Shown: positions 6,030 to 25,542 of the stretch, piece by piece
Layout: the number at the start of each line of letters is the position of its first letter
How positions within the stretch are numbered: the stretch's first letter is position 1
NCBI GenBank assembly: GCA_050309605.1
Contig: JBNRMN010000002.1
Location: 16,438-80,437, forward strand
DNA: 64,000 nt
Source of the DNA: Anaerohalosphaeraceae bacterium
GTDB lineage: Bacteria; Planctomycetota; Phycisphaerae; Sedimentisphaerales; Anaerohalosphaeraceae
Direction of reading: 5' to 3'
Program-made: the position numbers and the translations under genes
Notes under the pieces: generated by a model
Database searches by the model: none
What the model was told of the DNA's origin: nothing
What the model saw: only the letters and a program-made list of their open reading frames with translations

Positions 6030-7190
6030 TTGGCACAAGTTTTCAGACCTTATACCGCAAGCCGTCAGCGCCGCGGGCGTCATGTAAAAATGCTGATGCT
6101 GACGCTGATCGTAGTGATTGTGGGGGTGGTGATTTTGATTAAAAGTCAGACCGTCGAGGCGCCGGCGACGGGTGACTCCTCATCGCCGCCGCGGGTTGAG
6201 CTTGACGAGGTGCTGCCGCCGTCGCGCAGTGCCGGTCCATCTGCTCAAGCCCCGTCGCCGACGGCTGCACCGCCGGTCAATGAGCCGCCTGTTTCGGAGC
6301 CGGAGCCGGAGTCGGAGCCGGCGGCTGTGTCGGCATCGGAGCCGGAAGCTGCGGCTGTTGCGTCCGCACAGACCTCGGCGGAACAGACGGCTGGCCAGAC
6401 CTCGCCTGAACGCCAGTCGGGGGATAAAACCAGCCTTGAGGCCCAGCGTCTGATCGAAGAGGCGCTGACGCTGCGCGACCGGGGGCGGGTCATCGCGGCA
6501 CGGGATAAGCTCAATCAAGCACTGACGATGCAGTTAAGCCCTCAGATTCGTACCGGCGTCAAGGTGCAGTTGGCCAGTCTGGCGGATAAGTGGCTGTTCA
6601 GTCGTGATGTGCTCGAAGGCGACAAGCTGACGGGGTATTATCTGGTCAAGCCGGGCGAATTGCTGGCCAAGATCGGTCGTGAACACAAAGTGCCCTATGA
6701 GATTCTGATGCGCATCAACGGGATTGAGCGGCCGGAACTGCTTCAGGCCGGACGGCGGATCAAAGTCATTCATGGGCCGTTTCATGCGGTTGTTAATCGC
6801 ACAACATACACCATGGACTTGTATCTTCAGGATGTGTATGTCAAGAGTTATCAAGTCGGCCTGGGCAGACCCGAGCATACGACGCCGACCGGGCGCTGGG
6901 TCGTTGCGCCGGGCGGCAAGATGATCAAGCCCACCTGGACGGATCCGGATACCGGCAAAACGTATAAAGGCAGCGATCCGGACTATCCGCTGGGATCGCG
7001 CTGGATCGCTTTGGACGGCATTGAGGGCAACGCCAGAGGACGCACGGGGTTTGCCCTGCACGGCACGCATGAGCCGGAGACCATCGGCACGCAGTCCAGC
7101 CGCGGCTGTATTCGCCTGCATAACGGCGATGTGATTGAAGTGTATGAGGTGTTGGAGCCGGGGCATTCGAATGTGCAGGTGACCGATTGA
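6030..7190 (+). CDS. Membrane-anchored LysM / L,D-transpeptidase (YkuD family)
   Basis: N-terminal TM, Pro/Glu linker, LysM (YLVKPGELLAKIG..INGI), HGT...IG..SSRGCIRL catalytic motif. Confidence 0.92.
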   Translation: MAQVFRPYTASRQRRGRHVKMLMLTLIVVIVGVVILIKSQTVEAPATGDSSSPPRVELDEVLPPSRSAGPSAQAPSPTAAPPVNEPPVSEPEPESEPAAVSASEPEAAAVASAQTSAEQTAGQTSPERQSGDKTSLEAQRLIEEALTLRDRGRVIAARDKLNQALTMQLSPQIRTGVKVQLASLADKWLFSRDVLEGDKLTGYYLVKPGELLAKIGREHKVPYEILMRINGIERPELLQAGRRIKVIHGPFHAVVNRTTYTMDLYLQDVYVKSYQVGLGRPEHTTPTGRWVVAPGGKMIKPTWTDPDTGKTYKGSDPDYPLGSRWIALDGIEGNARGRTGFALHGTHEPETIGTQSSRGCIRLHNGDVIEVYEVLEPGHSNVQVTD

Positions 7191-7218
7191 GGTCAGAAGT
7201 CAGAGGTCAGAGGTCAGA
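7191..7218. repeat. Heptamer tandem repeat (GGTCAGA)x4
   Basis: Directly visible right after the stop codon, with one mismatch. Confidence 0.85.
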
Positions 7219-7253
7219 GGGATTTTTTTGGTGTTATTTGAGGATGTACGGCG

Positions 7254-8141
7254 GTGTCGAGAGGGCGATTTTTCACACGACGCTCGGCGTCTGATTCCGT
7301 GCGGGTCGGTGCGCTGAGCCTGTCCGTTGCGGTTCATCTGGCGGCGTTGACCGTGCTGGGATCGGTGCATTTCCGACGTGATGCCGAGATGCCGGCTGAA
7401 GCGGTTTCGGCGGATATTTCCGTTCACGTGGTTGAACGGATTCTTGAATCGCCGCCGGCGCCCAAACCCAAGCCGAGGATTGAGCCGACACCTGCCCCGA
7501 CCGTGGCGCGCCCCTTGCCCAAGCCCGCTGAGCCTGCGCCGCCGTCGCCTAAGCAGGAACCGGCACAACCGGTCGTTTCGAAACCGGACAGCCGTCCGGC
7601 GGATACGGTGTTTTTTTCCGGTACGACCGTCGCGGCCAAGCGAGTGTGCTATGTGGTGGACGGTTCGGGCAGTATGTTTGGGCTGATGTATCTGGTGCGC
7701 GAGCAGTTGCGTGAGTCGATTCTGAAATTGTCGGCCGAGCAGTCGTTTAATGTGGTGTTTTTTATGGAAAACGGGCAGCTTTTGCAGGCGTTCGAGGGGA
7801 CGCTTGAGAAGGCAAGCCCGTCGGCCAAGGCCGAGGCGCTGAATTTGCTCGGACGTATCCGGCCGGGAGGACAGACGATTGCCGAAGACGCGCTCGGGGC
7901 GGCTATGACGATGCGCGACAAAAGCGGACGCCGGGCGGAAGTGCTCTATTTTGTAACTGATGGGTTTGACCTGATGGACGGTGACGGTCAGGCGTTTATC
8001 CGACGGATTGACGCCCTTCGACAGTCGGTATCGCCGGGGACGGTCGTCCACACCATCGGCATCTATCCGGAAGCACGGGACAGCGGCATTCTGTCGCGAT
8101 TGGCGCAGGTGTGCGGCGGGCGGTATATCGAGGTGAATTGA
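7254..8141 (+). CDS. Membrane-anchored vWA-domain protein with Pro-rich (TonB-like) linker
   Basis: SxxxH TM helix, Pro-rich stretch, MIDAS YVVDGSGSM, FVTDG, VHTIG. Confidence 0.85.
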   Translation: MSRGRFFTRRSASDSVRVGALSLSVAVHLAALTVLGSVHFRRDAEMPAEAVSADISVHVVERILESPPAPKPKPRIEPTPAPTVARPLPKPAEPAPPSPKQEPAQPVVSKPDSRPADTVFFSGTTVAAKRVCYVVDGSGSMFGLMYLVREQLRESILKLSAEQSFNVVFFMENGQLLQAFEGTLEKASPSAKAEALNLLGRIRPGGQTIAEDALGAAMTMRDKSGRRAEVLYFVTDGFDLMDGDGQAFIRRIDALRQSVSPGTVVHTIGIYPEARDSGILSRLAQVCGGRYIEVN

Positions 8142-8369
8142 GTGCCCACCGGCATCGTGTTTTGCGCCAGGGGATGTGGCTGTTGTATTCATTGGCATGG
8201 GTTATCGCGATACTGGTTTGCGCGACGCCGGTTAAATGGGAGAAAAAGCAAATTTTTTAAGAAATTATGTTTTTTTCCTGTAACGGAGGTATAATAGAAA
8301 CGTCCTCTTAAACAGGATGAACAGGACTTTTTACAGGACATTCTATATCCATCAATTAAGGAGACGGTT

Positions 8370-11258
8370 ATGATATTTCCGAGAACCGGCATTATTGCAT
8401 CCTTTTTTCTGATTTTTTCGATGGGTGCATTGGGGGATGTGCAATGGCTGCGTTATCGAACCAGTGAGGATGTGGGCCAGGAGGTGGGCGCCTCGGTGAA
8501 CCGGTATTATCGCAGTTTTGAGTCGCAGCGTCCGGAGCACGTGCGGTGTCCGGAATTCAAATCCGACAGTCCCTTGTTTATTAAATGGAACACCCCGATG
8601 GACGGGCAGGGTTTTCGGTGGATCGCGTTGGATCGTTCGACGCCGTATGGACAATATGATCTGTTGTATATCGATTCAAACGGCGACGGGCATCTGGATG
8701 ACGAGAAGCCGTATCAGGGGCGGCGAAGCGATCAGTATCGTATGGCCTTTCATCCGTTTCCTGTCTATCTGACCGGCGAGGACGGGCCGATTACCTATCA
8801 TCTGGCGTGCCAATTCTACAGCTATGATGAGCGCAGTCGATATTTGATGATGTCTTCGGGCGGTTATTATGAAGGGACGGTGTTGATCGGCGGCGAACCG
8901 GTTGGGTGTGTTCTGGTGGATACCAACGGCAACGGGACGTTTGACGATACGGCTGAGGACTTTAACGCCGACCGGATTTTGCTGGGTGAAGGACAAAATC
9001 GGCGGGAGTATTTTGTGGGTCGCTATCTGGATTATGAAGGGACGTTGTATCGGCTTCAGATTGCACGCGACGGGGCGTTTGTGTCTCTTGCGGCTGCGCC
9101 CGACGTATCGTTTGGGGTCGTGCAGGTTCCCGAAGGTTTGACGAAATTCTCGGCCGGGGGTGTTAATGGAATGTATCACATGTCGCCGGAAAACGGGCAC
9201 GTGCGCCTGCCGGAAGGGACGTATCGGGTGTATCAATGGGAGTTGGTTCGTCAGGACAAGGGGCAGGACTGGACCTTGCGGGGAAGCAATTTTCCGCGTC
9301 AGCAGAGTTTTACGGTCAGCGCCGATACGCCGGCGAGGGTGGCTGTCGGCGAGCCGGTATTTTCGCGGCTGTCGGTTTCCGAACGACAGGGAATCTATTC
9401 GATCAATCAGGAACTTCGGGGCAAGATGAACGAGCAGGTCAGTGTGCTGCGAAACGGTCGGCAGCCGCCGGCGCCGAAGGTGCATATTCGCAGCCAAACG
9501 GGCGCGTATGACCGGACGTTTTCGCTGGAGTATGGGTGAGGCGGTACCTGTTCGCTCTCGTGGCGAGAGCCGAGGAATATTGAGCGTCCGTATGTTATAA
9601 CGCCGCTGGTCGAGGGGCCGTTTGATATACGGCAGATGCGCTATGTTTTTAAGCCGCTGCATCGTTCGGTACCGGTCGTCGGGCCGTGGATTGCCGAGGT
9701 TGCCGCCGATGAGGCGCTGCGCGTGGTGGTTGACGGTACGGGGCTGGTTGACCGTAACGGCGACCGTTTGCCGGAGCATTTGACGCAAACCGAGACGCAG
9801 TGGATTGTATCGCAAGAGGAGGTGGGAGAAGGGCTTGTCTTTGATTTCGGCCAAGCGGTCGAGTTGGAAACGCTTCAAATCTGGAATTACAATGAGCCGG
9901 GCTATACATCGCGCGGCGTCGCGCAGGCGGATGTATCGGTCTGGACGTCTGAAGGCGACTGGAAGACGGTTTTGCGCGGCGCGTCGCTGCAAGAAGCCGA
10001 AGGGACAGACCAGTATGATGAGCCGACCCTGCTGAGGCTTGTCCCGACGCGGGCCGAGAAGGTGCGGCTGAGCAATCTTAAGCCGTTTGCCGATGAGGGG
10101 TTTGTCGGTTTGTCGGCGATCCGGTTTTATGAGAAGGCCACGTTGGCGGCCTGCAATCCGCAGCCGCCGGGAGGGGCATCGCTGCCGTTCAGTTCTCAGG
10201 CGACGTTGTTCTGGACGCCGGGTAAAGAGGCGGCTGCGTATGATGTGTACGCCGGAATCGACGGTCAAGAGCCGGCGTTTTTGGGTCGCATTGCGGAATC
10301 TCAGGTCAAACTGGTCGGGCTGGTCGGCGAACGAACATATCGGTGGCGCATTGATGCGGTACAAACGAATGGTACCGTTACGCAAGGGCCGCTGTGGTCG
10401 TTTTCGGTTGAGCCGGGCCGCTGTGTGGCGCATTGGCCGTTTGATGAACACGAAGGCCAAACGGCTGCCGATTCGCTCGGTCAGGCGGCCGGTGTGTTGA
10501 GAGGTGAACCGGCGTGGCTGATTGACGGCGGACGGATTGACGGGGCCATCGAGCTGGACGGTCAGCGTGATTTTGTCGAAACGCCGGCGCTGCATTTGAA
10601 CACTGATACGCTGACGATGACTGTCTGGCTGCGGGCTGATCCGCCGCCGAATCAACTGACCGGCGTGATGTTCTGCCGCACGCCTTCGACGGTGGCGGGA
10701 ATTCACTTGAGCGGTACGAATCTGCGGTATCACTGGAATGATCTTCCGGAAAGTTATAATTGGGACAGCGGACTGAGTCTTCCGACGGATGGCAGGTGGG
10801 TGTTTGCCGCCCTGACGGTTACGCCGGAGTCGGCCAGGCTGTACCTGCATCATGACGGTGAGCTGAAGACAGCGGAAAATCGTCTCGTTCATTCCGTTCA
10901 GCCCTTTGACGGGCCGTTGACATTGGGATGTGACGGCGGGATCAATGACCGCAATTTCAAAGGTCGTATGGATGATGCGCGGGTGTATAATTATGCGCTG
11001 ACTGCTGAACAGATTCTTGCACTGGCCGAGGGACGTGAGCCGGCGGATTACGCTTCAGATGCGGCGCCGTCGCTGGCGCTGGCCGGTGCGGAATTGATCC
11101 AGCGCGACGCGGATTTGAAGGCGATCGCCGAGGCTCGGCAGCGCGAGCGACAAGCGGCTCCGCCGGCCGAGGTGCGCCGACGCAATATCCTGCCGGTGCT
11201 GGTGATTGTGGCGTTGATTGCCGCCGCGGCGGTGGTCTTGGGCAGGAAGTCCGCATAA
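8370..11258 (+). CDS. Putative exported selenoprotein (962 aa, Sec390; UxxxC motif, discoidin-like and LamG domains, C-terminal TM)
   Basis: ORFs 8370-9539 and 9636-11258 are in the same frame, separated only by TGA at 9537-9539. Read-through gives EYG-U-GGTCSLSWREP, and a SECIS-like hairpin follows. Signal peptide; FKGRMDDARVYNYALT LamG motif. Confidence 0.8.
9554..9570 (+). promoter_or_regulatory. Candidate bacterial SECIS hairpin
   Basis: GCTCTCG-TGG-CGAGAGC, perfect 7-bp stem; loop at +22..+24 after the TGA. Confidence 0.8.
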
Positions 11259-11382
11259 ACCGCAGAATAAGCAGTGAAACGTCAGATTTCACAAACTAAA
11301 CAGAGAACGTTCTATTATGCGGCACGATCCTTCCGGCCGTATTGAAGGGGGATCGTGCCCGTGCTGCAAGGGAGGTTTCAGG

Positions 11383-13821
11383 ATGCGTCAAGTCATAAGC
11401 AGAAACGGGTGGACGTGGGTTATGGTTGTGTCGGCGGTACTCGGTGCGGCTGAGGCGAAAACGCTCAAAGGCACGGTCACCGGTCCTGACGGCGCACCGG
11501 TGGACGGCGCGGCGGTGAGTGTCTATGCGGCCCAGCTTAAGATTGAATCGCTTGCTTTTGAGGTTCAGCCGGTCGGTCAGACGACGACGTGTTCGTCGGG
11601 ACTGTTTTCGGTGGAGACGGATGTTCAGATGCTGTCCAGCGAGGGAGGCTGGCTGTTTTTTGCGGAAAAGCCGGGCCTGTCAATCGGTTTTTCTTTGCTG
11701 CAAGACTTCTCGGAGGACAGCACGTCGCTTCAACTGACCGCGCCGCAGACATTGGCCGGACGGATTGAGGATATTCACGGTAATGCGGTTGCCGGGGCCG
11801 GGGTGCGTCTGCTGGTTTTATCGGTTCCGGGTGAGCGTGAGTGCTATACGCTGGGGCTTGAGCCGATCCCGTTTTTTGCTGCGGAAACGGATGCGCAGGG
11901 GCGATTTGAATTCGCGAATCTGCCGGAAAACTGTACGGCTGAACTCTTGGCCAAAAAGGCGGGACTGGCGACCTTTCATACGCTGACGTCCAACATCAAT
12001 CCGCAAACGGGGCTGAGTTTTTCGGTCGGGCAGGAAGATATTGTCCTGACCTTATCCGAGGCGTGTCGAATCAGCGGTATAGTGACCGACCAGGACAATC
12101 AGCCGGTGGGTCATGTGCAGATTGTGGCGATTGAAGCGGACCATCCGCAGATCGGGATTTTTACCCGGAATCTAACACGCGCCGAGGCCGACGGGACATT
12201 CAGCTTCGGCGGCCTGTCGGCCGGGTCATATCGACTCAGTGTGATTGATGCGGACTGGATGTCCGAGCCGGTTACCGTGGAGGTCAAGACGGAGGTGGGT
12301 GTGCCGCTGAAGGTCGTCAAGGGCAGCCTGCTGACAGTGACGGTGGTGGACGGCGTTTCCAATCAGCCGGTTGGATCGGCTCAAGTCAATGTGAGTCCGC
12401 AGGATGAACGCAGCAGTTTCTCGTTCGGCAGGGGCACGACCGATCCGGAGGGCAAAGTGCAAAGTCGCGTTTTGCCGGGGACGTATAATGTGTACGTCAG
12501 TGCGCCCGGATATCGCAGCAGCCGCAGTGTCGCGGCGGTCGTGGAAGACGGCAAGACCAATGAGATCACGATTATGCTGGGCGCAACGGCCCGCATTGCC
12601 GGAACGGTTACCGATTCCGACGGGCGGCCCGTTGCAGGGGCACAAGTCTTTGTGCTCCCCTTTTCGGGTAATGTGCGGGACGCCATACAGACAACCGACG
12701 AAAAGGGGCACTTTACCCTTGGGTGGGATCCGGAGCAGATCAGTTGGGTACAGGGTGAATTCTATCTTGCCGCGATTGACAAAAGCAGCAACCGTGCGGT
12801 GATTGAGCCGATTGACGCGGACACCACGGACATCCAGCTTACCCTTCAGCCCGGTCTGACGATCACCGGCAAAGTGACCGGCCCGGACGGCGAATCTCTG
12901 GCCGGGGCGGGGGTGAATGTGCAGTTTCGCGGCTCAAACTGGTCTTCGACGCTTCAGGGATACACCGCCCAAACCGACCGGGACGGGATGTATCGTATTG
13001 CCGCCATACCGCCGCAGCAGCGGTATTACTTATTCATCAGTGGGCCGACCGGTTATGGCACCGGGTCGGTTAATCTGGAGTTACCGACGGACGGCGATGT
13101 GGTTACCGCATCCGATACGGTGCTGAAATTGGCCAATCTGTCGGTATCCGGCAAGGTGGTTGATGAGGACGGCAATCCGCTGGAGGGGGTGAATCTGCAT
13201 TGTTACGGCTCCGGCCAGCCCAGCGCCCAGGCGCGAACCGGCACGGATGGGACATTTGTGTTTGATGCGGTCTGCCAAGGCGATCTGTCCATTCAGGCCA
13301 ATTATCAAAAAGACGGCGAGTATATGTATTCCAATGTCCGAACCGAAGGCGGAGCGCAGGAGGTCACGATCGTCCTGGGCCCGCAAAGCTCCGGCGGCGG
13401 CTATGTGCCGCGACGGCCGGCCCCGCTGGTCGGCAAGCTGCTGCCGGATTTGTCGGGGTACGGCATTGAGCTTGAGAGGCAGGCCGGGCCGGTGCTGGTA
13501 TGCGTCTGGGACTGGCGGCAGCGGCCGAGCCGTTATATGGTGCGGCAACTGGCCGCGCGGGCCGGTGCGCTGGCCGAGCGGTCGGTACAGGTCGTGCTGC
13601 TCAATGGCGAATCGACGGAACGTGAGCCGCTCGATGCGTGGCTGGCTGATTTTGACATTCCGTTCGTCTGCGGCGTTATCGCCATCGACCCCGATAATTC
13701 TCGATTTAATCTCGGCGTCCAGGCGATGCCGTGGCTGATTTTAACCGATGGTCAGCGCAAGGTCATTGCTGAAGGGTTTGCGCTGTCCGAATTGACTGAT
13801 AAGCTGGGCGGACTGCAATAA
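11383..13821 (+). CDS. Exported protein with carboxypeptidase-regulatory-like repeats and a C-terminal thioredoxin-like fold
   Basis: Signal peptide; repeated G.V.D.DG.P..GA.V ... TD..G.F units; C-terminal LPDL..PVLVCVW..QRPS..AMPWLILTD. Confidence 0.8.
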   Translation: MRQVISRNGWTWVMVVSAVLGAAEAKTLKGTVTGPDGAPVDGAAVSVYAAQLKIESLAFEVQPVGQTTTCSSGLFSVETDVQMLSSEGGWLFFAEKPGLSIGFSLLQDFSEDSTSLQLTAPQTLAGRIEDIHGNAVAGAGVRLLVLSVPGERECYTLGLEPIPFFAAETDAQGRFEFANLPENCTAELLAKKAGLATFHTLTSNINPQTGLSFSVGQEDIVLTLSEACRISGIVTDQDNQPVGHVQIVAIEADHPQIGIFTRNLTRAEADGTFSFGGLSAGSYRLSVIDADWMSEPVTVEVKTEVGVPLKVVKGSLLTVTVVDGVSNQPVGSAQVNVSPQDERSSFSFGRGTTDPEGKVQSRVLPGTYNVYVSAPGYRSSRSVAAVVEDGKTNEITIMLGATARIAGTVTDSDGRPVAGAQVFVLPFSGNVRDAIQTTDEKGHFTLGWDPEQISWVQGEFYLAAIDKSSNRAVIEPIDADTTDIQLTLQPGLTITGKVTGPDGESLAGAGVNVQFRGSNWSSTLQGYTAQTDRDGMYRIAAIPPQQRYYLFISGPTGYGTGSVNLELPTDGDVVTASDTVLKLANLSVSGKVVDEDGNPLEGVNLHCYGSGQPSAQARTGTDGTFVFDAVCQGDLSIQANYQKDGEYMYSNVRTEGGAQEVTIVLGPQSSGGGYVPRRPAPLVGKLLPDLSGYGIELERQAGPVLVCVWDWRQRPSRYMVRQLAARAGALAERSVQVVLLNGESTEREPLDAWLADFDIPFVCGVIAIDPDNSRFNLGVQAMPWLILTDGQRKVIAEGFALSELTDKLGGLQ

Positions 13822-13883
13822 GACGACAGCACAGCAGGGGTGTTTTATTCGGCTGTTGATGTGATTATGTTCAGGGAGTTGAG

Positions 13884-15038
13884 ATGAGACAATGGGTTGT
13901 TTTATGGGTCGCTTTCGCGGCGGCCGGGGCGATGGCGCTGACGGTTTCGGAGCAGACGCTTGATCTGTTTGGTACGTCCGAGCCGGAGGATCCGAATGCC
14001 GTGGTTCTCGCTGATCCGCCCTACACCGTCAAGGTGTCGCGCACGGGCAAAGTGCTGAATGTGGCGATTGAGACCGCGTCGCGTGAGCAGGCGGAATTGC
14101 TGTTCGGCGCGCATTATGAACAGTCGCCGAGACTGTCGATTTATAAGGGCGATTTGCTGCTGGCATCGGGGCAGTTCGCCTTTGGGTGAGGCGGCGTCTG
14201 TGCGTACTCGTGGCGAGTACCGATGTATGCTTATGGCACATTCAGAATCGAGACGGAAGTGCCGACCGGCGAAGGCGAACCGATCCGCGTCGAGCCGACG
14301 ACATATTATTTCAATCCGCTGTATCATGCGTCGGGGTTTGTCTATTTCGTTCCGGTTGCGGCGGCGTTTTTGTTCCTGAAAGAAAACCGGCGACCGAAGG
14401 CGTTTTTGATTCTGGCGCCAATGCTGCTGGTGATGGGGATGTGGAGAGGGTTTTCCGGAGTGATGCATTTTCCTGAAGAGGCGGTCAGCATGTTAAATTC
14501 AGTGGTTATGGCCTTGCTGGCGGGCCTTTCCGTTGTCTGGCTTCTGGGTGAGCGGATCGGCCATCGCCATCGGTTGGCAACGACTTTTCTGGCGGGCGGT
14601 ATTATGCTGGGGTGCTGTGCCCTGATGCTGGTAGAAATCTTTTCCTCGGACTATGTGTTTCAAATCGCATTTTTCGGTGTGATCAGTGCGGCGGTTATCC
14701 TGTCGGGCTTACTTGTCGGCGGTTTCCTGAGCCGGAAGCGATTTGGCCCGGTGCGTTTTTTGCTATGGTTCGGTGTGGGCATTTTATCGGCGACTTTTGT
14801 GCTGTTTTTTGTTTATTATGCGATTTTGACATTTTCCTATTTCAGTGCAGATTTGTTCTGGATGTTGTTGGGCGTGATGCTGACTTATGCCGCAATCTAT
14901 TGGGTAGGCGTCTTGCCGTTTCTGGTGCTGTTTTTCGTCAATGACTTTTGGCGGCAGCGGTTTACGGCGGTCATGGGATTGGGCACTGTAGCCGTATCCG
15001 AGACGGAAGCTCACGAGGCGTTTACGTCTGACTTCTGA
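13884..15038 (+). CDS. Putative membrane selenoprotein (384 aa, Sec102; exported UxxxC domain plus multi-TM domain)
   Basis: ORFs 13884-14189 and 14223-15038 are in frame, separated only by TGA at 14187-14189. Read-through gives FAFG-U-GGVCAYSWRVP, and a SECIS-like hairpin follows. Confidence 0.8.
14204..14220 (+). promoter_or_regulatory. Candidate bacterial SECIS hairpin
   Basis: GTACTCG-TGG-CGAGTAC, perfect 7-bp stem; loop at +22..+24 after the TGA. Confidence 0.8.
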
Positions 15039-15886
15039 TCGCCCAGTTCCGTCGGTTCGTCCAGCAGGGTGGCCGGCTTCAGTGCGCCGGGGCCGCATTT
15101 TGTGCATTCCAGACAGCGGATGCAGTGGTCGGCGTTGGGGGTCTTATCGGGCTGGACGCCGTAGCGGCACAGGGTTCGACAGCGGCCGCATTGGGTGCAT
15201 TGGTGTTCTTCCAGGTTCAGTGTAAACAGAGAAAACCGATTGAAAAAGCCGAAAATCGCACCCAGCGGGCACAGAATTCGACACCACGGGCGGATGGTAA
15301 AAAAGATGGCGGCGACAAAGACGACGATGATGGTGATTTTGAGGGTGTTGGGCCAGGGGATTACGTCGCCGGCGACGGCGGCGGAAACCACATCGGGCAG
15401 GGCCTTTTCCAGCCCGCCGGCCGGGCAGATACGGCAGATAAACAGCGGGTGGCCTTCGCCGAAAAAGTAGGGGACGGCCAGGACTGTCCCGATCAGTACG
15501 ACATAGCGAAAATGCCCCATCCAGCGGGGGATTTTGAAACGCGGCGCGGGGACCTTGGCCGCGACATCCTGAAGCAGGCCGAACGGACACATCCAGCCGC
15601 ACACCAGCGAGCCGAGCATCACGCCGAACGCGATCAGCAGTCCCACGGCAAAATACGGAAACAGGTGCAGCGCACTGAATTGGGCAATGACGCCGATGGG
15701 GCAGCCGAACAAGGCCAGCGGACAGGCATAGCAATGGAACACCGGTCCGCACACGGTGTGCATCCGCAACCCGAACGGATCGAGCCAGACCAGCAAAAAA
15801 CCCGTCTGTACCCACAGCCGATGCGGCAGGAGTTTTTTGAAAAACCGCGACAGCGGCGATGACGATGAATTGACCGTGGACACCAC
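15011..15886 (-). CDS. Membrane 4Fe-4S binding protein (NapH/YccM-like polyferredoxin)
   Basis: CGWMCPFG and WCRILCPLG CxxxCP motifs; CTQCGRCRTLC and CIRCLECTKC ferredoxin motifs; TM helices; AAGGAGG RBS (start may be the second GTG, 15883). Confidence 0.9.
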   Translation of the reverse strand: MVSTVNSSSSPLSRFFKKLLPHRLWVQTGFLLVWLDPFGLRMHTVCGPVFHCYACPLALFGCPIGVIAQFSALHLFPYFAVGLLIAFGVMLGSLVCGWMCPFGLLQDVAAKVPAPRFKIPRWMGHFRYVVLIGTVLAVPYFFGEGHPLFICRICPAGGLEKALPDVVSAAVAGDVIPWPNTLKITIIVVFVAAIFFTIRPWCRILCPLGAIFGFFNRFSLFTLNLEEHQCTQCGRCRTLCRYGVQPDKTPNADHCIRCLECTKCGPGALKPATLLDEPTELGDQKSDVNAS

Positions 15887-16286: not shown

Positions 16287-17297
16287 TTATGTTGTCGGTT
16301 TGATTTCCAGCGGATGGGCGTTTTGATATTGTTCCTGCATTCGACTGGTGGTGATATGCGTATAAATCTGGGTTGTCGATAACGATTGGTGTCCCAGCAG
16401 TTCCTGAACGCTTCGCAGGTCGGCACCGTTGTTGAGCATATGGGTCGCGAAGCTGTGCCGCAGCGTGTGCGGGCTGATGTTCGGGTCCAGACCCGCCTCG
16501 ATGAGGTATTTGTCCATTTTTCGGCGGACGCTGCGGGCACTCATCCGTTTGCCGTGCTTGTTGGCAAACAGCACTTTACTGTCAAAGCCCGGATCATTGG
16601 CCAGACGGCGGCTGCGAAACTCCAGATAATGTTGAATGCTCTGCAGCGCTGTCAGACCAATCGGGCAAATCCGTTCTTTTTTGCCTTTGCCGCGGACGTG
16701 AATCACTTCGCCGAGGAAATCCACATCTTCCATATTCAGGGCCACCAGTTCGCTGACCCGCATCCCCGTGCTGTAGAGTACTTCCATCATCGCTCGGTCG
16801 CGGGCACCCAGCCATGTGGTGGCCGGCGGTGTGTTCAGCAGCCGCTGAACCTGCTCGTATTCAAGAAACTTGGGCAGTTTTTTATCTTGTTTGGGTGTTT
16901 TGATATTGGTGGCCGGATTGCTGGACACATAATTGCGCTTGACGAGAAATTTGTAAAAGCTGCGCACCGTGGCCAGTTTGCGTGCGGTGGTGGATTTGGA
17001 ATAGGCGTGGGAGTTCAATTCCGCCAGAAAACGGCGTATCGTATTGACGTCCGCAGCCTGCAGCAGGGTATCGATCTGGGTTTGTGCCTGGGTCTGTGTT
17101 TGTGTCGCGACCGAACCGTTCTCGGCGGCCCAGGGATTTTGTCCGTTGTCGTCGGGGCCGTGCGCGTCGGCGTGGGCGGCCAGAAAGGCGCTGTACTGCT
17201 CCAGGTCAGCCTCATAACACTTGGCGGTATGCTCGGAAAAATGTTTTTCAAATTTCAGATAATTGACAAAATCCTGGATAATCGCCGAGTTGTCCAT
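16287..17297 (-). CDS. xerC: Tyrosine recombinase XerC
   Basis: RD.A..E.LYSTGMRVSEL, GKGKKER, SPHTLRHSFATH.L..GADLR.VQELLGH.SLSTTQIYTH. Confidence 0.88.
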   Translation of the reverse strand: MDNSAIIQDFVNYLKFEKHFSEHTAKCYEADLEQYSAFLAAHADAHGPDDNGQNPWAAENGSVATQTQTQAQTQIDTLLQAADVNTIRRFLAELNSHAYSKSTTARKLATVRSFYKFLVKRNYVSSNPATNIKTPKQDKKLPKFLEYEQVQRLLNTPPATTWLGARDRAMMEVLYSTGMRVSELVALNMEDVDFLGEVIHVRGKGKKERICPIGLTALQSIQHYLEFRSRRLANDPGFDSKVLFANKHGKRMSARSVRRKMDKYLIEAGLDPNISPHTLRHSFATHMLNNGADLRSVQELLGHQSLSTTQIYTHITTSRMQEQYQNAHPLEIKPTT

Positions 17298-23632: not shown

Positions 23633-25542
23633 CATTTCGACAGCCGCTGCGCGGCTGGGGGTTACGGAGCGGGCTGTCCGTAAGCGTTGTCTGGTCGGTG
23701 ATTTGCCCGGCGCTGAGAAGCGTAATGGGATCTGGCGGATACCTGTAACCGCCGACGCGCGGCTGGCAGGGCGTCCTGCCGTCGACGTGCGGGTTGATGC
23801 TGATGACCTGGCAAGAATTCCAAAACCAAAGTTAGACGAGGCGATTCGGCGGGCAGGCGTTGTCGCGGCTTTTGAGAGGTTCTCGCGTGAACACGTCCGG
23901 GCCGGCGGGCTGCGAACTGAGGCCTTCGAAATATTCGCGTATCAAAATAATCTGGCTGTCGGCACGCTGCGGCGATGGGTTTCACGGCACAAGCAACACG
24001 GGGTTTTGGGCCTGGTGGATTGTCGCGGCGGGTCGCGAAATAGCGAGACTATCAGTCCGGAGGCCTGGGAGTTTTTCAAGAGTCTCTATCTCGATCCGCG
24101 CCAGCCGTCAATCCGGCAGTGCCTGCGGATGACCGTTCACCATAATAAGAGGGAGAAGTTGGGCTGGACAATACCATCGTACGGCGCGCTTTGCCGATAC
24201 ATAGACAAGTATTTGCCCTTGCCGGTTCGGGTGCTGCATCGTGAGGGGCAGGCCGCCTATGAGGCCAAGTGCGCGCCTTATATTCAAGTCGATCTTTCGG
24301 AAGTCGAGCCGGGCAGCGTCTGGGTCGGCGATCACCACCAGTTTAATGTGTTGATTCAACACATGGGCAAATGGGTGCGGCCCTGGCTGACGGCCTGGAT
24401 GGATGCGCGCAGCCGCGCGCTGGTGGGCTGGCAGGTCTGTTTGCAGCCGAACCAGACGACGATCCTGACGTCGTTTCGGGATGCGGCGAAAAAATATGGC
24501 CCACCGGATGGGGTTAAGATCGATAATGGCCGCGACTACGATGCACGATTGTTTACCGGCACGACCAAAAAACGCCGGAAGGCCCTGAGTAAGGGTTATC
24601 TTGACGAAGATACGGTGTCCGGCCTCTACGGTCTTTTGGGTGTCGAAGTTTCTTTTGCCATTCCTTACCATCCTCAAAGCAAGTCCATCGAACGGTTCTT
24701 TGATACCGTCGATCAACAGTTTTGCAAGTTTGTTCCGACGTATTGCGGCAAAGACACCAAGCGGAAGCCGGAAGCGCTTAATGATTATCTCAAGTCGTCG
24801 TCGGCGGTTGAGGCGGCTTATACGCTTGAGACCTTCTCGAAGGCCTTTGCCGATTACGCGGCTGTTTATAATACCCGGCCGCACTCATCGCTGGCCGGCC
24901 AGACGCCGCTGGAAGTGCTCGAATCGCGCGAGTCGAAGCGCGTCGTTTTGGATGATGTGCTGGATCTGTTGTGCCGTGTCTGGATAGACGCAAAAGTCAC
25001 CAAGAACGGTGTACGCATAAATGGACTTTATTTTGGGCAATACGACCCCCCACATCATGGCGCTGCAAGGCAAAGCTGTGCGTGTTAGCTACGATCCGAA
25101 CGACGCGGGGGTCATTTTCATTTACAACGAAGATTGGAAGTTTGTTGCGCGGGCCGAGAGCAATCGGCTGGTCGCCTACGGGCAGCCCGGGGTCAGCGAC
25201 GGCTCTGTCCGTGCGGCCATGCGGCAAAAGGCCCGCGCGGCAAAACAGCTTCGTCAGCAGCGGGACGCGGCGCGTACTCGCGCGATGGACGTGGCGGCCC
25301 TGGCGATCGAGGCCCAGGCCGCCGAGACCCGGCCGGCGCCGGCGGCCAAGCCGCCGAGGATTCGGGCGGTCAAAACCGTTTTGGACGGTCAGCTCGACGC
25401 GCATAAAGTGGCTGCTGGGCCGTCGCCGTCGCGAGAGTCGTTCTGTCTGGAGTGGGACATCGAACCCAAAGGGCTAAAACCGCCGCCTGTTATTGATCTG
25501 GGGCTGGACGACGATTTCTGGGAGGATGCCGATGTTGGGTGA
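23616..25542 (+). pseudogene. MuA-like DDE transposase split by a frameshift in a C6 run (25046-25051)
   Basis: N-terminal HTH; WVGDH, D..SR..VGW, IDNGRDY, K.IERFF core. The C-terminal G..V.VSYDPND...I.I domain continues in another frame. Confidence 0.85.

Follow-up and report, generated by a model that had tools for sequence, protein, structure and literature searches.

Known selenoproteins are for the most part cytoplasmic enzymes with a thioredoxin fold or a metal cofactor. DUF1573, found in exported proteins, is a small domain of the beta-sandwich type, and the cysteine of SoxY sits in a C-terminal GGCGG arm. Bacterial selenoproteins that carry their SECIS element within the open reading frame (for example fdhF/FdhA and the computationally predicted families in Table 1 of PMC13188914) have an in-frame UGA and, shortly downstream, a stem-loop whose small apical loop contains G or U; the bSECIS criterion given in PMC13188914 is a distance of 16–37 nt from the UGA and a small apical loop with G/U in the first two positions. 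These genes need selA, selB, selD and tRNA-Sec, have homologues with Cys in place of selenocysteine (Sec), and frequently lie beside selAB. The same Table 1 lists DUF1573 (PF07610) with a 'UGC' Sec motif.

We analyzed a stretch of 64,000 nucleotides (the window) from an Anaerohalosphaeraceae bacterium, in which two genes, here called type A and type B, share an in-frame TGA and the domain around it (the Sec domain). These genes resemble the in-ORF-SECIS selenoproteins in all of the features above; however, the Sec domain is predicted to be Ig/FnIII-like rather than thioredoxin-like, it is extracytoplasmic and modular with up to nine copies per genome, and Cys forms are the minority, not the majority, in the samples examined. 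Compared to DUF1573, both the motif (U-G-C there, U-G-G-x-C here) and the spacing differ, and we found no PF07610 match for the type A and type B proteins (E up to 0.1) or for 18 family members (E up to 1). The Sec domain resembles SoxY (SoxYZ; PDB 2ox5, 2oxh and 2oxg) as a predicted periplasmic Ig-like beta-sandwich with a Gly-flanked reactive chalcogen residue. In contrast to SoxY, the Sec is placed in an internal beta-hairpin (residues 101–106 of 384) with a Cys at +4, and a sequence-family match is absent. A neighboring gene at 15011–15886 is similar to NapH/MauN in its Fer4_5 domain, CxxCP motifs, two 4Fe-4S motifs and length of ~280–290 aa; however, NapG, NapA and Mau genes are absent nearby, and the gene product would have the Sec-domain proteins as its partners.

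Positions 14169–14225, in the frame of the ORF beginning at 13884, read G-Q-F-A-F-G-TGA-G-G-V-C-A-Y-S-W-R-V-P-M. The TGA at 9537–9539 lies in the context E-Y-G-TGA-G-G-T-C-S-L-S-W-R-E-P, and it shares with the TGA at 14187–14189 the common motif G-U-G-G-x-C-x-x-S-W-R-x-P. The first-pass annotation had placed this motif at both sites, and its coordinates were exact. With TGA read as U, the type A gene (13884–15038, forward strand) is a single frame of 384 residues with Sec at U102, and the type B gene (8370–11258, forward strand) is a single frame of 962 residues with Sec at U390; neither has a further internal stop. A degenerate DNA version of the motif (at most one mismatch) has two matches in the 64-kb window, compared to a mean of 0.00 and a largest value of 0 in 100 dinucleotide-preserving shuffles of the window. 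A strict whole-genome motif scan was unsuitable as a census of copies, as it returned only the two window copies and missed a third in the same genome, found by profile search, in which G-S replaces G-G. A P-x-(V/L)-x-I segment that had been noted upstream of both TGAs is real, and all 18 aligned members keep its proline. Homology between the two proteins is confined to ~139 residues around the TGA (26% identity, pairwise E 1e-6), as expected from the proposal that two otherwise dissimilar genes share a Sec domain. The TGA at 14187–14189 is spanned by contigs from four runs in four studies, with no listed difference across 14155–14335, and an assembly error is ruled out.

Public gene calls cut the type A gene in two at its TGA, and the database homologues of type A are C-terminal fragments only (242–271 aa, 'hypothetical protein' or unnamed), alongside many N-terminal fragments that end in ...YG. 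These records are in line with a reading of the TGAs as ordinary stops, which would leave a 101-aa secreted protein and a 271-aa membrane protein (starting at ATG 14223), or a pseudogene with a nonsense mutation. TGA is also a genuine stop elsewhere in this genome, including at 15036–15038, where it terminates the type A gene itself. We regard this reading as very improbable. The 11 codons between the TGA and ATG 14223 (GGVCAYSWRVP) are the most conserved stretch of the family, and the frame runs on unbroken through them in the Cys homologues. When we used the type A protein to query 41 genomes, the codon was TGA in 20 of 22 places, and the other two span the membrane part only; type A orthologues at 91%, 81% and 38–28% identity have one TGA each. 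A profile of the domain applied to 401 genomes of the phylum found TGA at the aligned codon in 61 of 71 places, and in metagenome DNA, where the search pattern left the Sec codon unspecified, TGA was present at all 78 distinct sites (metagenome contigs gave more than 619 pattern matches). Nonsense mutation would not yield TGA in the same column across distant genera. Among the best 150 cluster representatives from 1.84 billion searched, 71 have their last residue precisely at profile position 62, in ...[FY]G, and so are truncated at the TGA; a count of such proteins had been proposed as a check. The motif is thus found in other genomes and in metagenomes and is not unique to this assembly, and conservation of the TGA is established across both.

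Exchange of Sec and Cys is also established within the family. Among the best 150 protein-cluster representatives, 18 or more have Cys at the Sec position, as do three loci found in genomes (L052, L054 and L099). In L099 (FEYG-C-GGTCSLSWREP), the codon is UGU and all seven stem pairs of the downstream hairpin are intact, while L052 and L054 retain only 2–3 of the 7 pairs, have lost S-W-R, and come from genomes that have no selA match. Across the family, S(+7) is present in 57/77 and R(+9) in 59/77 Sec forms, compared to 4/14 and 5/14 of the Cys forms, and C(+4) is present in 69/77 Sec forms. Three degenerate members (L060, L084 and L092) have neither Sec nor Cys. A contig scan with a Cys-containing pattern returned two loci, Cys forms only by design, and a candidate from Dehalococcoidia (L100) was rejected as a 16-residue chance match, its genome having no domain hit.

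Some predicted proteins in public libraries have G, W, R, L or S at the Sec position (G or W in P0003, P0004, P0005, P0012, P0014 and P0021, and in P0018 and P0023). Gene calling under code 25 or code 4 would produce G or W, and such proteins could be cited for a different reading, in which TGA is translated as Trp or Gly through a changed code or general read-through. We give this reading very little credence. GGN and TGG are absent from the Sec position in all 71 + 78 DNA sites, and the outcome that the first-pass annotation had named as refuting, homologues with Trp, Gly or Arg at this codon, did not arise at these DNA sites. Because such codons are absent from every DNA site examined, the G, W, R, L and S residues are probably alternative-code gene calls or single-base variants. 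In addition, this genome ends genes with TGA, reading TGA as U in other frames gives many interruptions, and the hairpin decays where the TGA is replaced.

Downstream of each TGA is a SECIS-like hairpin on the forward strand: GUACUCG / UGG loop / CGAGUAC at 14204–14220 in type A and GCUCUCG / UGG / CGAGAGC at 9554–9570 in type B, the two differing by two compensatory pairs. The 7-bp stem starts 17 nt past the U of the UGA, and the loop starts at nt 25 when that U is counted. This places the UGG loop ~21 nt past the UGA, within the distance range and with the loop type described for bSECIS elements in PMC13188914. To measure covariation, we compared 79 sites with shuffles in which relatedness among the sites is uncorrected, and found that 81.8% of cells are paired compared to 67.4% in shuffles (0/500 reach the observed value) and that 75 cells have double changes compared to 18.3 in shuffles (0/500). 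Both sides are changed in 7 of 8 pairs, and slid-partner controls pair in at most 52.5%. The hairpin does appear in single-sequence folds, but the folding energies are no better than those of shuffles (z of 0.80, –0.31, 0.59 and 1.06), so the case for the RNA rests on covariation. An Rfam search of window positions 9400–14400 (E up to 1) returned nothing relevant. The hairpin lies inside the coding sequence, where it encodes x-S-W-R-x, and part of its conservation is therefore protein-driven. Constraint may also act in the other direction: the codons for residues +6 and +10 pair with each other in the RNA stem, which is why these residues co-vary as Y/V or L/E, and, as a side result, the in-ORF SECIS would dictate the protein sequence at these two positions.

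The genome encodes the Sec machinery, with a tRNA-Sec (74.4 bits, confirmed by ARAGORN with anticodon TCA), selB (323.6 bits), selA (550.6 bits) and selD (374.7 bits), all above cut-offs. In the phylum, selA is present in 24/25 genomes that have a TGA form, compared to a background of 289/401. The exception (G103, 90% complete) has TGA forms and no selA match, and in two Cys-only genomes the selA match is absent and the hairpin is lost. That selA tracks the TGA forms, and that tRNA-Sec, selA and selB are present at all, speaks against translation as Trp or Gly; the Sec machinery together with the covarying hairpin likewise speaks against an ordinary stop. A TGA-form gene is found within ~2 kb of selA in 12 genomes, which belong to 10 genera and 8 families. 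Adjacency to selAB does not specify function, as selenoprotein genes can be there as customers only. This 99.7%-complete genome has no FdhA match, and its SelD has no in-frame stop. A crude genome scan for TGA, hairpin and open frame gave 1111 candidates, 108 of them with a UGG or GUG loop, and was too noisy for a list of other selenoproteins; one of its candidates, at window position 1058, was rejected because its frame is non-coding and runs antisense to real ORFs.

Because the Sec machinery, a covarying hairpin, a conserved TGA and Cys homologues are found together, we read the TGAs at 14187–14189 and 9537–9539 as Sec codons, which on these sequence data they almost certainly are. SelB and tRNA-Sec would decode the UGA of type A with the hairpin at 14204–14220, 17–34 nt downstream, as the signal. 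The explanation as a whole, a SelB-decoded Sec codon with an in-CDS SECIS in an exported beta-sandwich family that gene callers split, is in our judgment highly probable.

We established the fold class of the Sec domain from structural models. The AlphaFold model of the type A protein (pLDDT 75.6, pTM 0.71) has a signal-peptide-like helix at residues 2–17, a beta-sandwich at residues 39–143 and ~7 long helices at residues 146–364, in agreement with the earlier suggestion of a signal-peptide domain fused to a multi-TM domain. The predicted signal peptide (residues 1–21, MRQWVVLWVAFAAAGAMALTV, 13884–13946) has low pLDDT in the model, and its cleavage would be expected from the sequence. The Sec domain (13998–14312), which profile A2 finds at E 1.1e-26, is modeled as a ~100-residue extracytoplasmic Ig/FnIII-like beta-sandwich with Sec on a hairpin loop, between strands 91–97 and 105–111, and with Cys106 at +4. 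The top match in VIA-align is 5t7a_B (Z 9.8, rmsd 2.9, 91 aligned), and numerous FnIII/Ig-like domains come next with Z 8–9.7. The structure search also returned SoxYZ (E 1.4e-2 to 2.8e-2) and CrdA (E 2.5e-2), neither of which is a better match than cytokine receptors; SoxYZ/CrdA ranked 9 and 33 in that search, and 15 in VIA-align (Z 8.6). At the level of the models, these matches are only generic beta-sandwiches.

The Sec domains of type A and type B match no family above the curated cut-off in Pfam-A or NCBIfam. With E up to 1, the best match of 18 members is 0.025 in Pfam (pYEATS) and 0.07 in NCBIfam, with OS_HP2 at 0.14 in one member, and the profile has no hits among PDB sequences. The curated families considered included PF07610 DUF1573, NF041046 UGSC, NF049953 'hypothetical protein DG' and NF041425 OS_HP2. 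The G-U-G-G-x-C motif is absent from the 119 families and subfamilies in the 2026 table (Table 1 of PMC13188914), and neither motif nor family is described in the accessible parts of the literature, including PMC13188914, PMC12013277 and PMC13326102. Supplementary candidate lists could contain the family, including those of Deng et al. 2026 (Cell Rep), a study of groundwater MAGs cited in PMC13188914. The Sec-domain family is apparently undescribed.

At least three architectures contain the Sec domain, and the copies within a genome are often in tandem. In type A, it lies ahead of the ~7-helix membrane domain (residues 146–364, 14319–14975), which has KENR and FWRxRF as conserved motifs but lacks any conserved Cys or His (alignment A4). 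This membrane domain matched no Pfam or NCBIfam family in HMM searches, and structure searches gave no clear match, the best being helical at Z 8.1, under the meaningful level for helical bundles. In type B, the order is signal peptide, beta-sandwich chain, Sec domain, a weak F5/8-type-C-like stretch, Laminin_G_3 and a C-terminal membrane helix, with the Sec domain thus ahead of the anchor helix. The model of type B residues 1–470 is all-beta (pLDDT 80.6), and the best Foldseek matches of its N-terminal region are adhesin repeats (6xi3, E 6.3e-4) and alpha-2-macroglobulin MG domains (4zjg, 8e-4), which again are only generic beta-sandwiches. In type C, the Sec domain is the extreme C-terminus. 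The domain had been called mobile, and this holds only for shuffling of the domain and expansion of its paralogues.

Between the two Sec-domain genes is a gene on the forward strand (11317–13821) for an 834-aa protein with seven CarboxypepD_reg-like repeats (Pfam PF13620, E 2.3e-58, 7 stretches), which has counterparts of 812–820 aa in the G034 and G016 clusters and of 569 aa in G027. On the reverse strand at 15011–15886 is the gene for the NapH/MauN-like membrane ferredoxin (291 aa), which is convergent with the type A gene, overlaps its 3' end by 28 nt and is not co-transcribed with it. The ferredoxin scores 49.4 bits for Fer4_5 against a cut-off of 22 and falls below the subfamily cut-offs of TIGR02163 (66.4 vs 213.05 bits) and NF007013 (52.2 vs 234 bits). 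The convergent NapH-like neighbor is also found in G023, G024, G245, G034, G016 and G027, and the gene neighborhood is established as a conserved cluster (types A and B and the NapH-like gene) in 7 genomes from 3 families within one order. A TGA in the NapH-like gene of G027 that we considered as a Sec codon is simply the stop codon of that gene.

With the domain exported across the cytoplasmic membrane and held adjacent to it, Sec would be presented on a loop that joins two strands and has glycines on either side. The selenolate may then pair with the Cys at +4, as a selenenylsulfide or as selenol/thiol, and the exposed pair, redox-active or carrying a ligand, would have a periplasmic target: a sulfur, selenium or metal species, or a partner protein. 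The pair would work in a conserved membrane module made up of type A, type B, the CarboxypepD_reg-repeat protein and the NapH-like iron-sulfur protein, and the last of these could supply electrons. We consider a redox role of the Sec/Cys pair plausible, though short of probable. Several findings count against this mechanism: the membrane domain of type A offers no conserved Cys or His as an electron relay, 8/77 Sec forms have no C(+4), and the NapH-like gene is convergent, with its linkage seen in a single order.

Sec could instead be structural, as a reduction-resistant selenenylsulfide or diselenide that staples the hairpin or crosslinks paralogous envelope proteins in an anoxic, reducing periplasm. 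Compared to disulfides, diselenide and selenenylsulfide bonds have the lower redox potentials, which would suit such a role. The proteins resemble non-enzymatic beta-sandwich chains (adhesin-like, macroglobulin-like), the Sec domain is membrane-adjacent, and both the number of paralogues, often in tandem, and the frequency of C(+4) are consistent with crosslinks. However, the three degenerate members have neither Sec nor Cys, which shows that the fold can do without the bond, and a NapH-like iron-sulfur protein as a linked neighbor points to turnover rather than a static bond. We regard a structural role as unlikely.

A carrier site is another alternative, in which the residue would bind a soft metal, be it Cu(I), Hg or another, or would carry persulfide or selenotrisulfide as cargo, and might serve selenium acquisition, by analogy with periplasmic beta-sandwich metallochaperones or with the Gly-Cys-Gly-Gly arm of SoxY. 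A glycine-flanked nucleophile on an extracytoplasmic Ig-like domain would fit this role. The weak structural matches include SoxYZ and CrdA, which binds copper/silver, but they are no better than those of unrelated Ig domains; SoxY has its motif on a C-terminal arm, in contrast to the internal hairpin that bears the residue here, and a conserved His or Met ligand is absent. The proximity of selA in 12 genomes and a rhodanese-TusA-DsrE fusion that adjoins one family copy (L076) also favor a carrier, as does the statement in the review PMC13188914 that ~70% of the predicted binding interactions of selenoprotein families involve metals. In contrast, the membrane domain belongs to no recognized transporter family in Pfam or NCBIfam. 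Taken together, we hold a carrier role to be rather doubtful.

A broader and more speculative reading, which we consider possible but on balance doubtful, is that the Sec domain is a main reason these bacteria keep the Sec machinery. The domain would then be a new selenium-based reactive center on an extracytoplasmic Ig-like scaffold, which has been shuffled onto several envelope proteins and serves either as a periplasmic redox relay fed by NapH or as a carrier of chalcogens or metals; in the carrier variant, the function is possibly selenium capture itself. This reading draws on the selAB adjacency (12 genomes, 8 families), the absence of FdhA and the SelD with no in-frame stop.

Hundreds of genes in genomes and metagenomes are now called as two 'hypothetical' fragments, and a domain profile combined with a SECIS model would repair these split genes and enlarge the known selenoproteomes of these bacteria. 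Sec forms retain S-W-R and the stem, old Cys forms drop both, and a recent UGU form retains the stem, and the family is thus a natural experiment, and a clean one, on the constraint that a SECIS places on coding sequence. The family stands apart from most known selenoproteins in its exported Ig-like domain, its Sec on an exposed hairpin, its many paralogues and its ties to selAB and to a NapH-like ferredoxin, and these features would raise the question of selenium chemistry in the anoxic cell envelope.

Translated in frame with the ORF beginning at 13884, 14169-14225 reads GQFAFG-TGA-GGVCAYSWRVPM, and a second TGA at 9537-9539 lies in the context EYG-TGA-GGTCSLSWREP. When TGA is read as selenocysteine (Sec, U), 13884-15038 becomes a single frame of 384 residues (type A, U102) and 8370-11258 a single frame of 962 residues (type B, U390), neither with a further internal stop. 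The degenerate DNA motif has two matches in the window and none are expected (100 shuffles). Frame translation and the motif scan confirm the first-pass annotation, which had placed the same TGA motif at both sites; it had also called the two genes otherwise dissimilar, and likeness between their proteins is indeed confined to the surroundings of the TGA (139 residues, 26% identity, pairwise E 1e-6). Contigs of four independent studies cover the type A site, with no difference listed over 14155-14335.

The source genome (3.4 Mb, 97 contigs, 99.7% complete) carries a tRNA-Sec gene scoring 74.4 bits (cut-off 47; ARAGORN calls tRNA-SeC, anticodon TCA) as well as selB (323.6 bits), selA (550.6 bits) and selD (374.7 bits), each above its curated cut-off. 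On contig C64 (22338-23949), the selD match lies in an open frame of 575 aa that no in-frame stop interrupts, and the tRNA-SeC gene comes directly after it (23853-23949). FdhA (TIGR01553) has no match anywhere in this genome; the Sec-domain family is thus at least one user of the Sec machinery here. A crude genome scan for further users was too noisy to extend the list.

When we searched the type A protein against 41 genomes drawn from its own genus, family and order, 12 had matches, with TGA in 20 of the 22 matched places; at the other two, only the membrane part of the query was covered. A2, a Sec-domain profile of 101 positions and 18 sequences, matched 71 places in 28 of 401 genomes of the phylum, with one TGA in 61 places and none in 10. 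A metagenome DNA scan with the pattern GG[TV]C[SRA][YL]SWR, which excludes the codon at the Sec column (the aligned position occupied by TGA or U), yielded more than 619 matching stretches, 302 of them confirmed. The preceding codon is TGA in 78 of 78 distinct loci (80 loci listed among the matches), in a sample where Sec forms are favoured because the pattern holds the hairpin-encoded S-W-R. The selA gene is present in 24 of 25 genomes with a TGA form, against a background of 289 of 401; the exception, G103 (90% complete), has a TGA form and no selA match. Against a public library of 1.84 billion cluster representatives, A2 gave 234 protein matches at E up to 1e-3, and 71 of the best 150 have their own C-terminus exactly at profile position 62 (...EYG in 49, ...EFG in 9), the pattern expected of gene calling that stops at the TGA. 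All ten 'near-length' database homologues of type A are C-terminal fragments of 242-271 residues, unnamed or labelled 'hypothetical protein'. The TGA is thus not unique to this assembly, and both the profile search allowing U and the count of proteins ending at ...[FY]G bear out the first-pass annotation in its choice of a Sec-containing domain over a chance nonsense mutation. Taken together, these data make it very probable that the TGA truly encodes Sec, within a domain family that is conserved.

Each TGA in the window is followed by a SECIS-like hairpin, GUACUCG-UGG-CGAGUAC at 14204-14220 in type A and GCUCUCG-UGG-CGAGAGC at 9554-9570 in type B. Both have a 7-bp stem and a UGG loop and start 17 nt after the U of UGA, and they differ by two compensatory pairs; loop position and composition match the bacterial SECIS description quoted in PMC13188914. 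The insertion mechanism is the classical bacterial one, whereas the Sec-domain family itself is not classical. For covariation we took 81 distinct TGA sites from related loci, used the 79 gap-free ones (two with codon insertions were excluded) and defined the helix as columns 17-24 and 28-35. Pair-forming cells reach 81.8%, compared to 67.4% in shuffles, and 75 cells are changed on both sides, compared to 18.3; 0 of 500 shuffles reach either value, and the shuffles ignore relatedness. Changes on both sides occur in 7 of 8 pairs, and sliding the 3' partner by 1-3 columns leaves 25-52.5% of cells paired. Folding energies of single sequences are no better than those of shuffles. The hairpin is located within coding sequence, an objection best answered by the Cys forms described next.

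Cys occupies the Sec column in at least 18 of the best 150 representatives, mostly as C-x-x-x-C...W..P. In two genomes, G112 and G264, we found only a Cys form (L052 and L054) and no selA match; 2-3 of 7 stem pairs are left, and A-G-K or T-G-K stands in place of S-W-R. In a Glu form (L060), 3 of 7 pairs survive. A type B homologue on a 3140-nt contig of an uncultured Pirellulales MAG (L099/L181) reads FEYG-C-GGTCSLSWREP with the codon UGU, all 7 stem pairs intact and a TGA copy on the same contig, and looks like a very recent one-base Sec-to-Cys switch. Counting residues from U, the number of the 77 distinct Sec forms that keep each residue is 69 for C(+4), 57 for S(+7), 64 for W(+8), 59 for R(+9) and 70 for P(+11). 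Among 14 Cys forms, chosen for having C(+4) and W(+8), the corresponding numbers are 4 for S(+7), 5 for R(+9) and 13 for P(+11). Because the codons UCG and CGA close the stem and their residues are rarely kept in Cys forms, S(+7) and R(+9) are largely imposed by the RNA; W(+8) and P(+11) reflect the protein itself. Stem pairing between their codons makes positions +6 and +10 covary, as Tyr/Val (UAC/GUA) or Leu/Glu (CUC/GAG).

The first-pass annotation had counted Trp, Gly or Arg in place of Cys or TGA as evidence against Sec. Cys homologues do exist, and every DNA site examined is free of G, W, R, L or S codons at the Sec column, but some library proteins (P0003-P0006, P0008, P0010, P0018, P0023 and others) have G, W, R, L, S or another residue there. 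Single-base changes of TGA yield precisely G, W, R, L, S and C. Since the DNA sites lack such codons, we read the non-Sec, non-Cys residues as gene-call or variant effects, probably alternative-code gene calls or single-base variants retained as longest cluster members.

The AlphaFold model of type A (13 aligned sequences; pLDDT 75.6, pTM 0.71) has at its N-terminus a helix resembling a signal peptide, followed by a beta-sandwich at residues 39-143 and about seven long helices at 146-364, in agreement with the signal-peptide domain fused to a multi-TM domain described at first pass. The model places U102 in the loop that joins strands 91-97 and 105-111, and C106 opens the next strand. A basic KENRR stretch after the first membrane helix suggests, by the positive-inside rule, that the sandwich is periplasmic. 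Structure searches with the type A Sec domain returned only generic Ig/FnIII/CBM-like matches (Foldseek best 5t7a, E 1.4e-3; VIA-align top Z 9.8, then dozens at Z 8-9.7), and the membrane part had no clear match. The first 470 residues of type B form a chain of beta-sandwiches (pLDDT 80.6) whose likeness to the repeats of adhesins and the MG domains of macroglobulins is weak; in the window's type B protein the Sec domain is followed by a Laminin_G_3 domain and then by a membrane helix at the C-terminus. Across the family, architecture A places the Sec domain before a membrane domain of about 280 residues, often with about 300 further residues ahead; B has about 390 residues, the Sec domain and a tail that is either short, containing a single membrane helix, or long and lectin-like; and in C, of about 400-500 residues, the Sec domain is terminal and ends about 40 residues after U. 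Genomes hold up to 9 copies (G245), often in tandem, and some copies are degenerate, with neither Sec nor Cys (L084, L092, L060).

Neither Pfam nor NCBIfam matches the Sec domain of the two window proteins or, at E up to 1, that of 18 family members, and no PDB sequence matched in a profile search (E up to 1). Table 1 of PMC13188914, which gives motifs and model accessions for 119 families or subfamilies, lacks a U-G-G-x-C motif, and no model in it gave a match here. BSepDB (PMC13326102), in the portions consulted, is built from previously reported families; deep-Sep (PMC12013277) reports nine new ones, and none of those named in the portions examined resembles the Sec domain. A literature search of main article texts found no description of the family. 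With no counterpart in Table 1, in the deep-Sep families examined or in the main-text search, this is apparently an undescribed selenoprotein domain family.

In 12 genomes of 10 genera and 8 families, selA has a TGA-form gene within about 2 kb (the source genome G000, G002, G245, G046, G055, G086, G095, G146, G231, G247, G410 and G433); in the remaining 12 genomes with both, the genes are on different contigs or far apart. In G433 (L096, contig C19 33900-42087), selA-selB is flanked by two Sec-domain genes on the same strand, operon-like. The source genome has a third copy outside the window (contig C34 83228-83494, minus strand; L038:1447-1707), an 86-aa ORF reading MEYG-U-GSTCRYSWRVP without a signal peptide. 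It lies upstream of selA at a distance of 241 nt, in divergent orientation; G002 has the same arrangement. In the window, type B (8370-11258) is followed by a CarboxypepD_reg-repeat protein (11317-13821) and type A (13884-15038), with which a NapH-like Fer4_5 membrane ferredoxin gene (15886-15011) is convergent. The A-B-CarboxypepD_reg set with the convergent NapH-like gene recurs in G034, G016 and G027, and type A with that gene in G023, G024 and G245, so that the linkage covers 7 genomes, 7 genera and 3 families of one order only. Because there are only 3-6 Fer4_5 stretches per genome (G016, G023, G027, G034 and G245 searched), chance linkage is unlikely. The window cluster is flanked by a LysM and YkuD L,D-transpeptidase gene (6030-7190, plus strand), a 332-aa ORF with no family match (7200-8198, minus) and a XerC/XerD-type tyrosine recombinase gene (16287-17297, minus; 343.9 bits). 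In other genomes, Sec-domain genes adjoin prepilin-type N-terminal methylation motif genes at three loci (L036, L031, L072) and sulfatase genes at two (L028, L080). In a single instance (L076:10-1080, plus strand; G245 contig C8), a gene for a rhodanese-TusA-DsrE_2 fusion of sulfur-transfer domains is directly upstream.

The data directly support the recoding signals, conservation, Sec/Cys exchange, export signal, fold class and neighbourhoods; any specific biochemical role is only tentative. During translation, SelB with Sec-tRNA would bind the 14204-14220 hairpin and Sec would be inserted at 14187; the protein would then be exported, and its sandwich would come to lie against the outside of the cytoplasmic membrane. 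The selenol, flanked by Gly, may form an exposed reactive centre there together with the Cys at +4. That pair could serve as a reduction-resistant structural crosslink, which we consider improbable, or the domain could be a chalcogen or soft-metal carrier, possibly tied to selenium handling, which seems rather unlikely. Our preferred reading, itself tentative, is that a redox-active selenenylsulfide/selenol-thiol pair may operate alongside the NapH-like iron-sulfur protein as part of a membrane module. A simple electron relay is, however, made less likely by two features: the membrane domain lacks conserved Cys or His, and the NapH-like gene is convergent. The family is distinctive in that it combines an exported Ig-like fold with a modular, multi-copy organisation and linkage to selAB and the NapH-like gene, and it offers a clear display of the SECIS shaping protein sequence.
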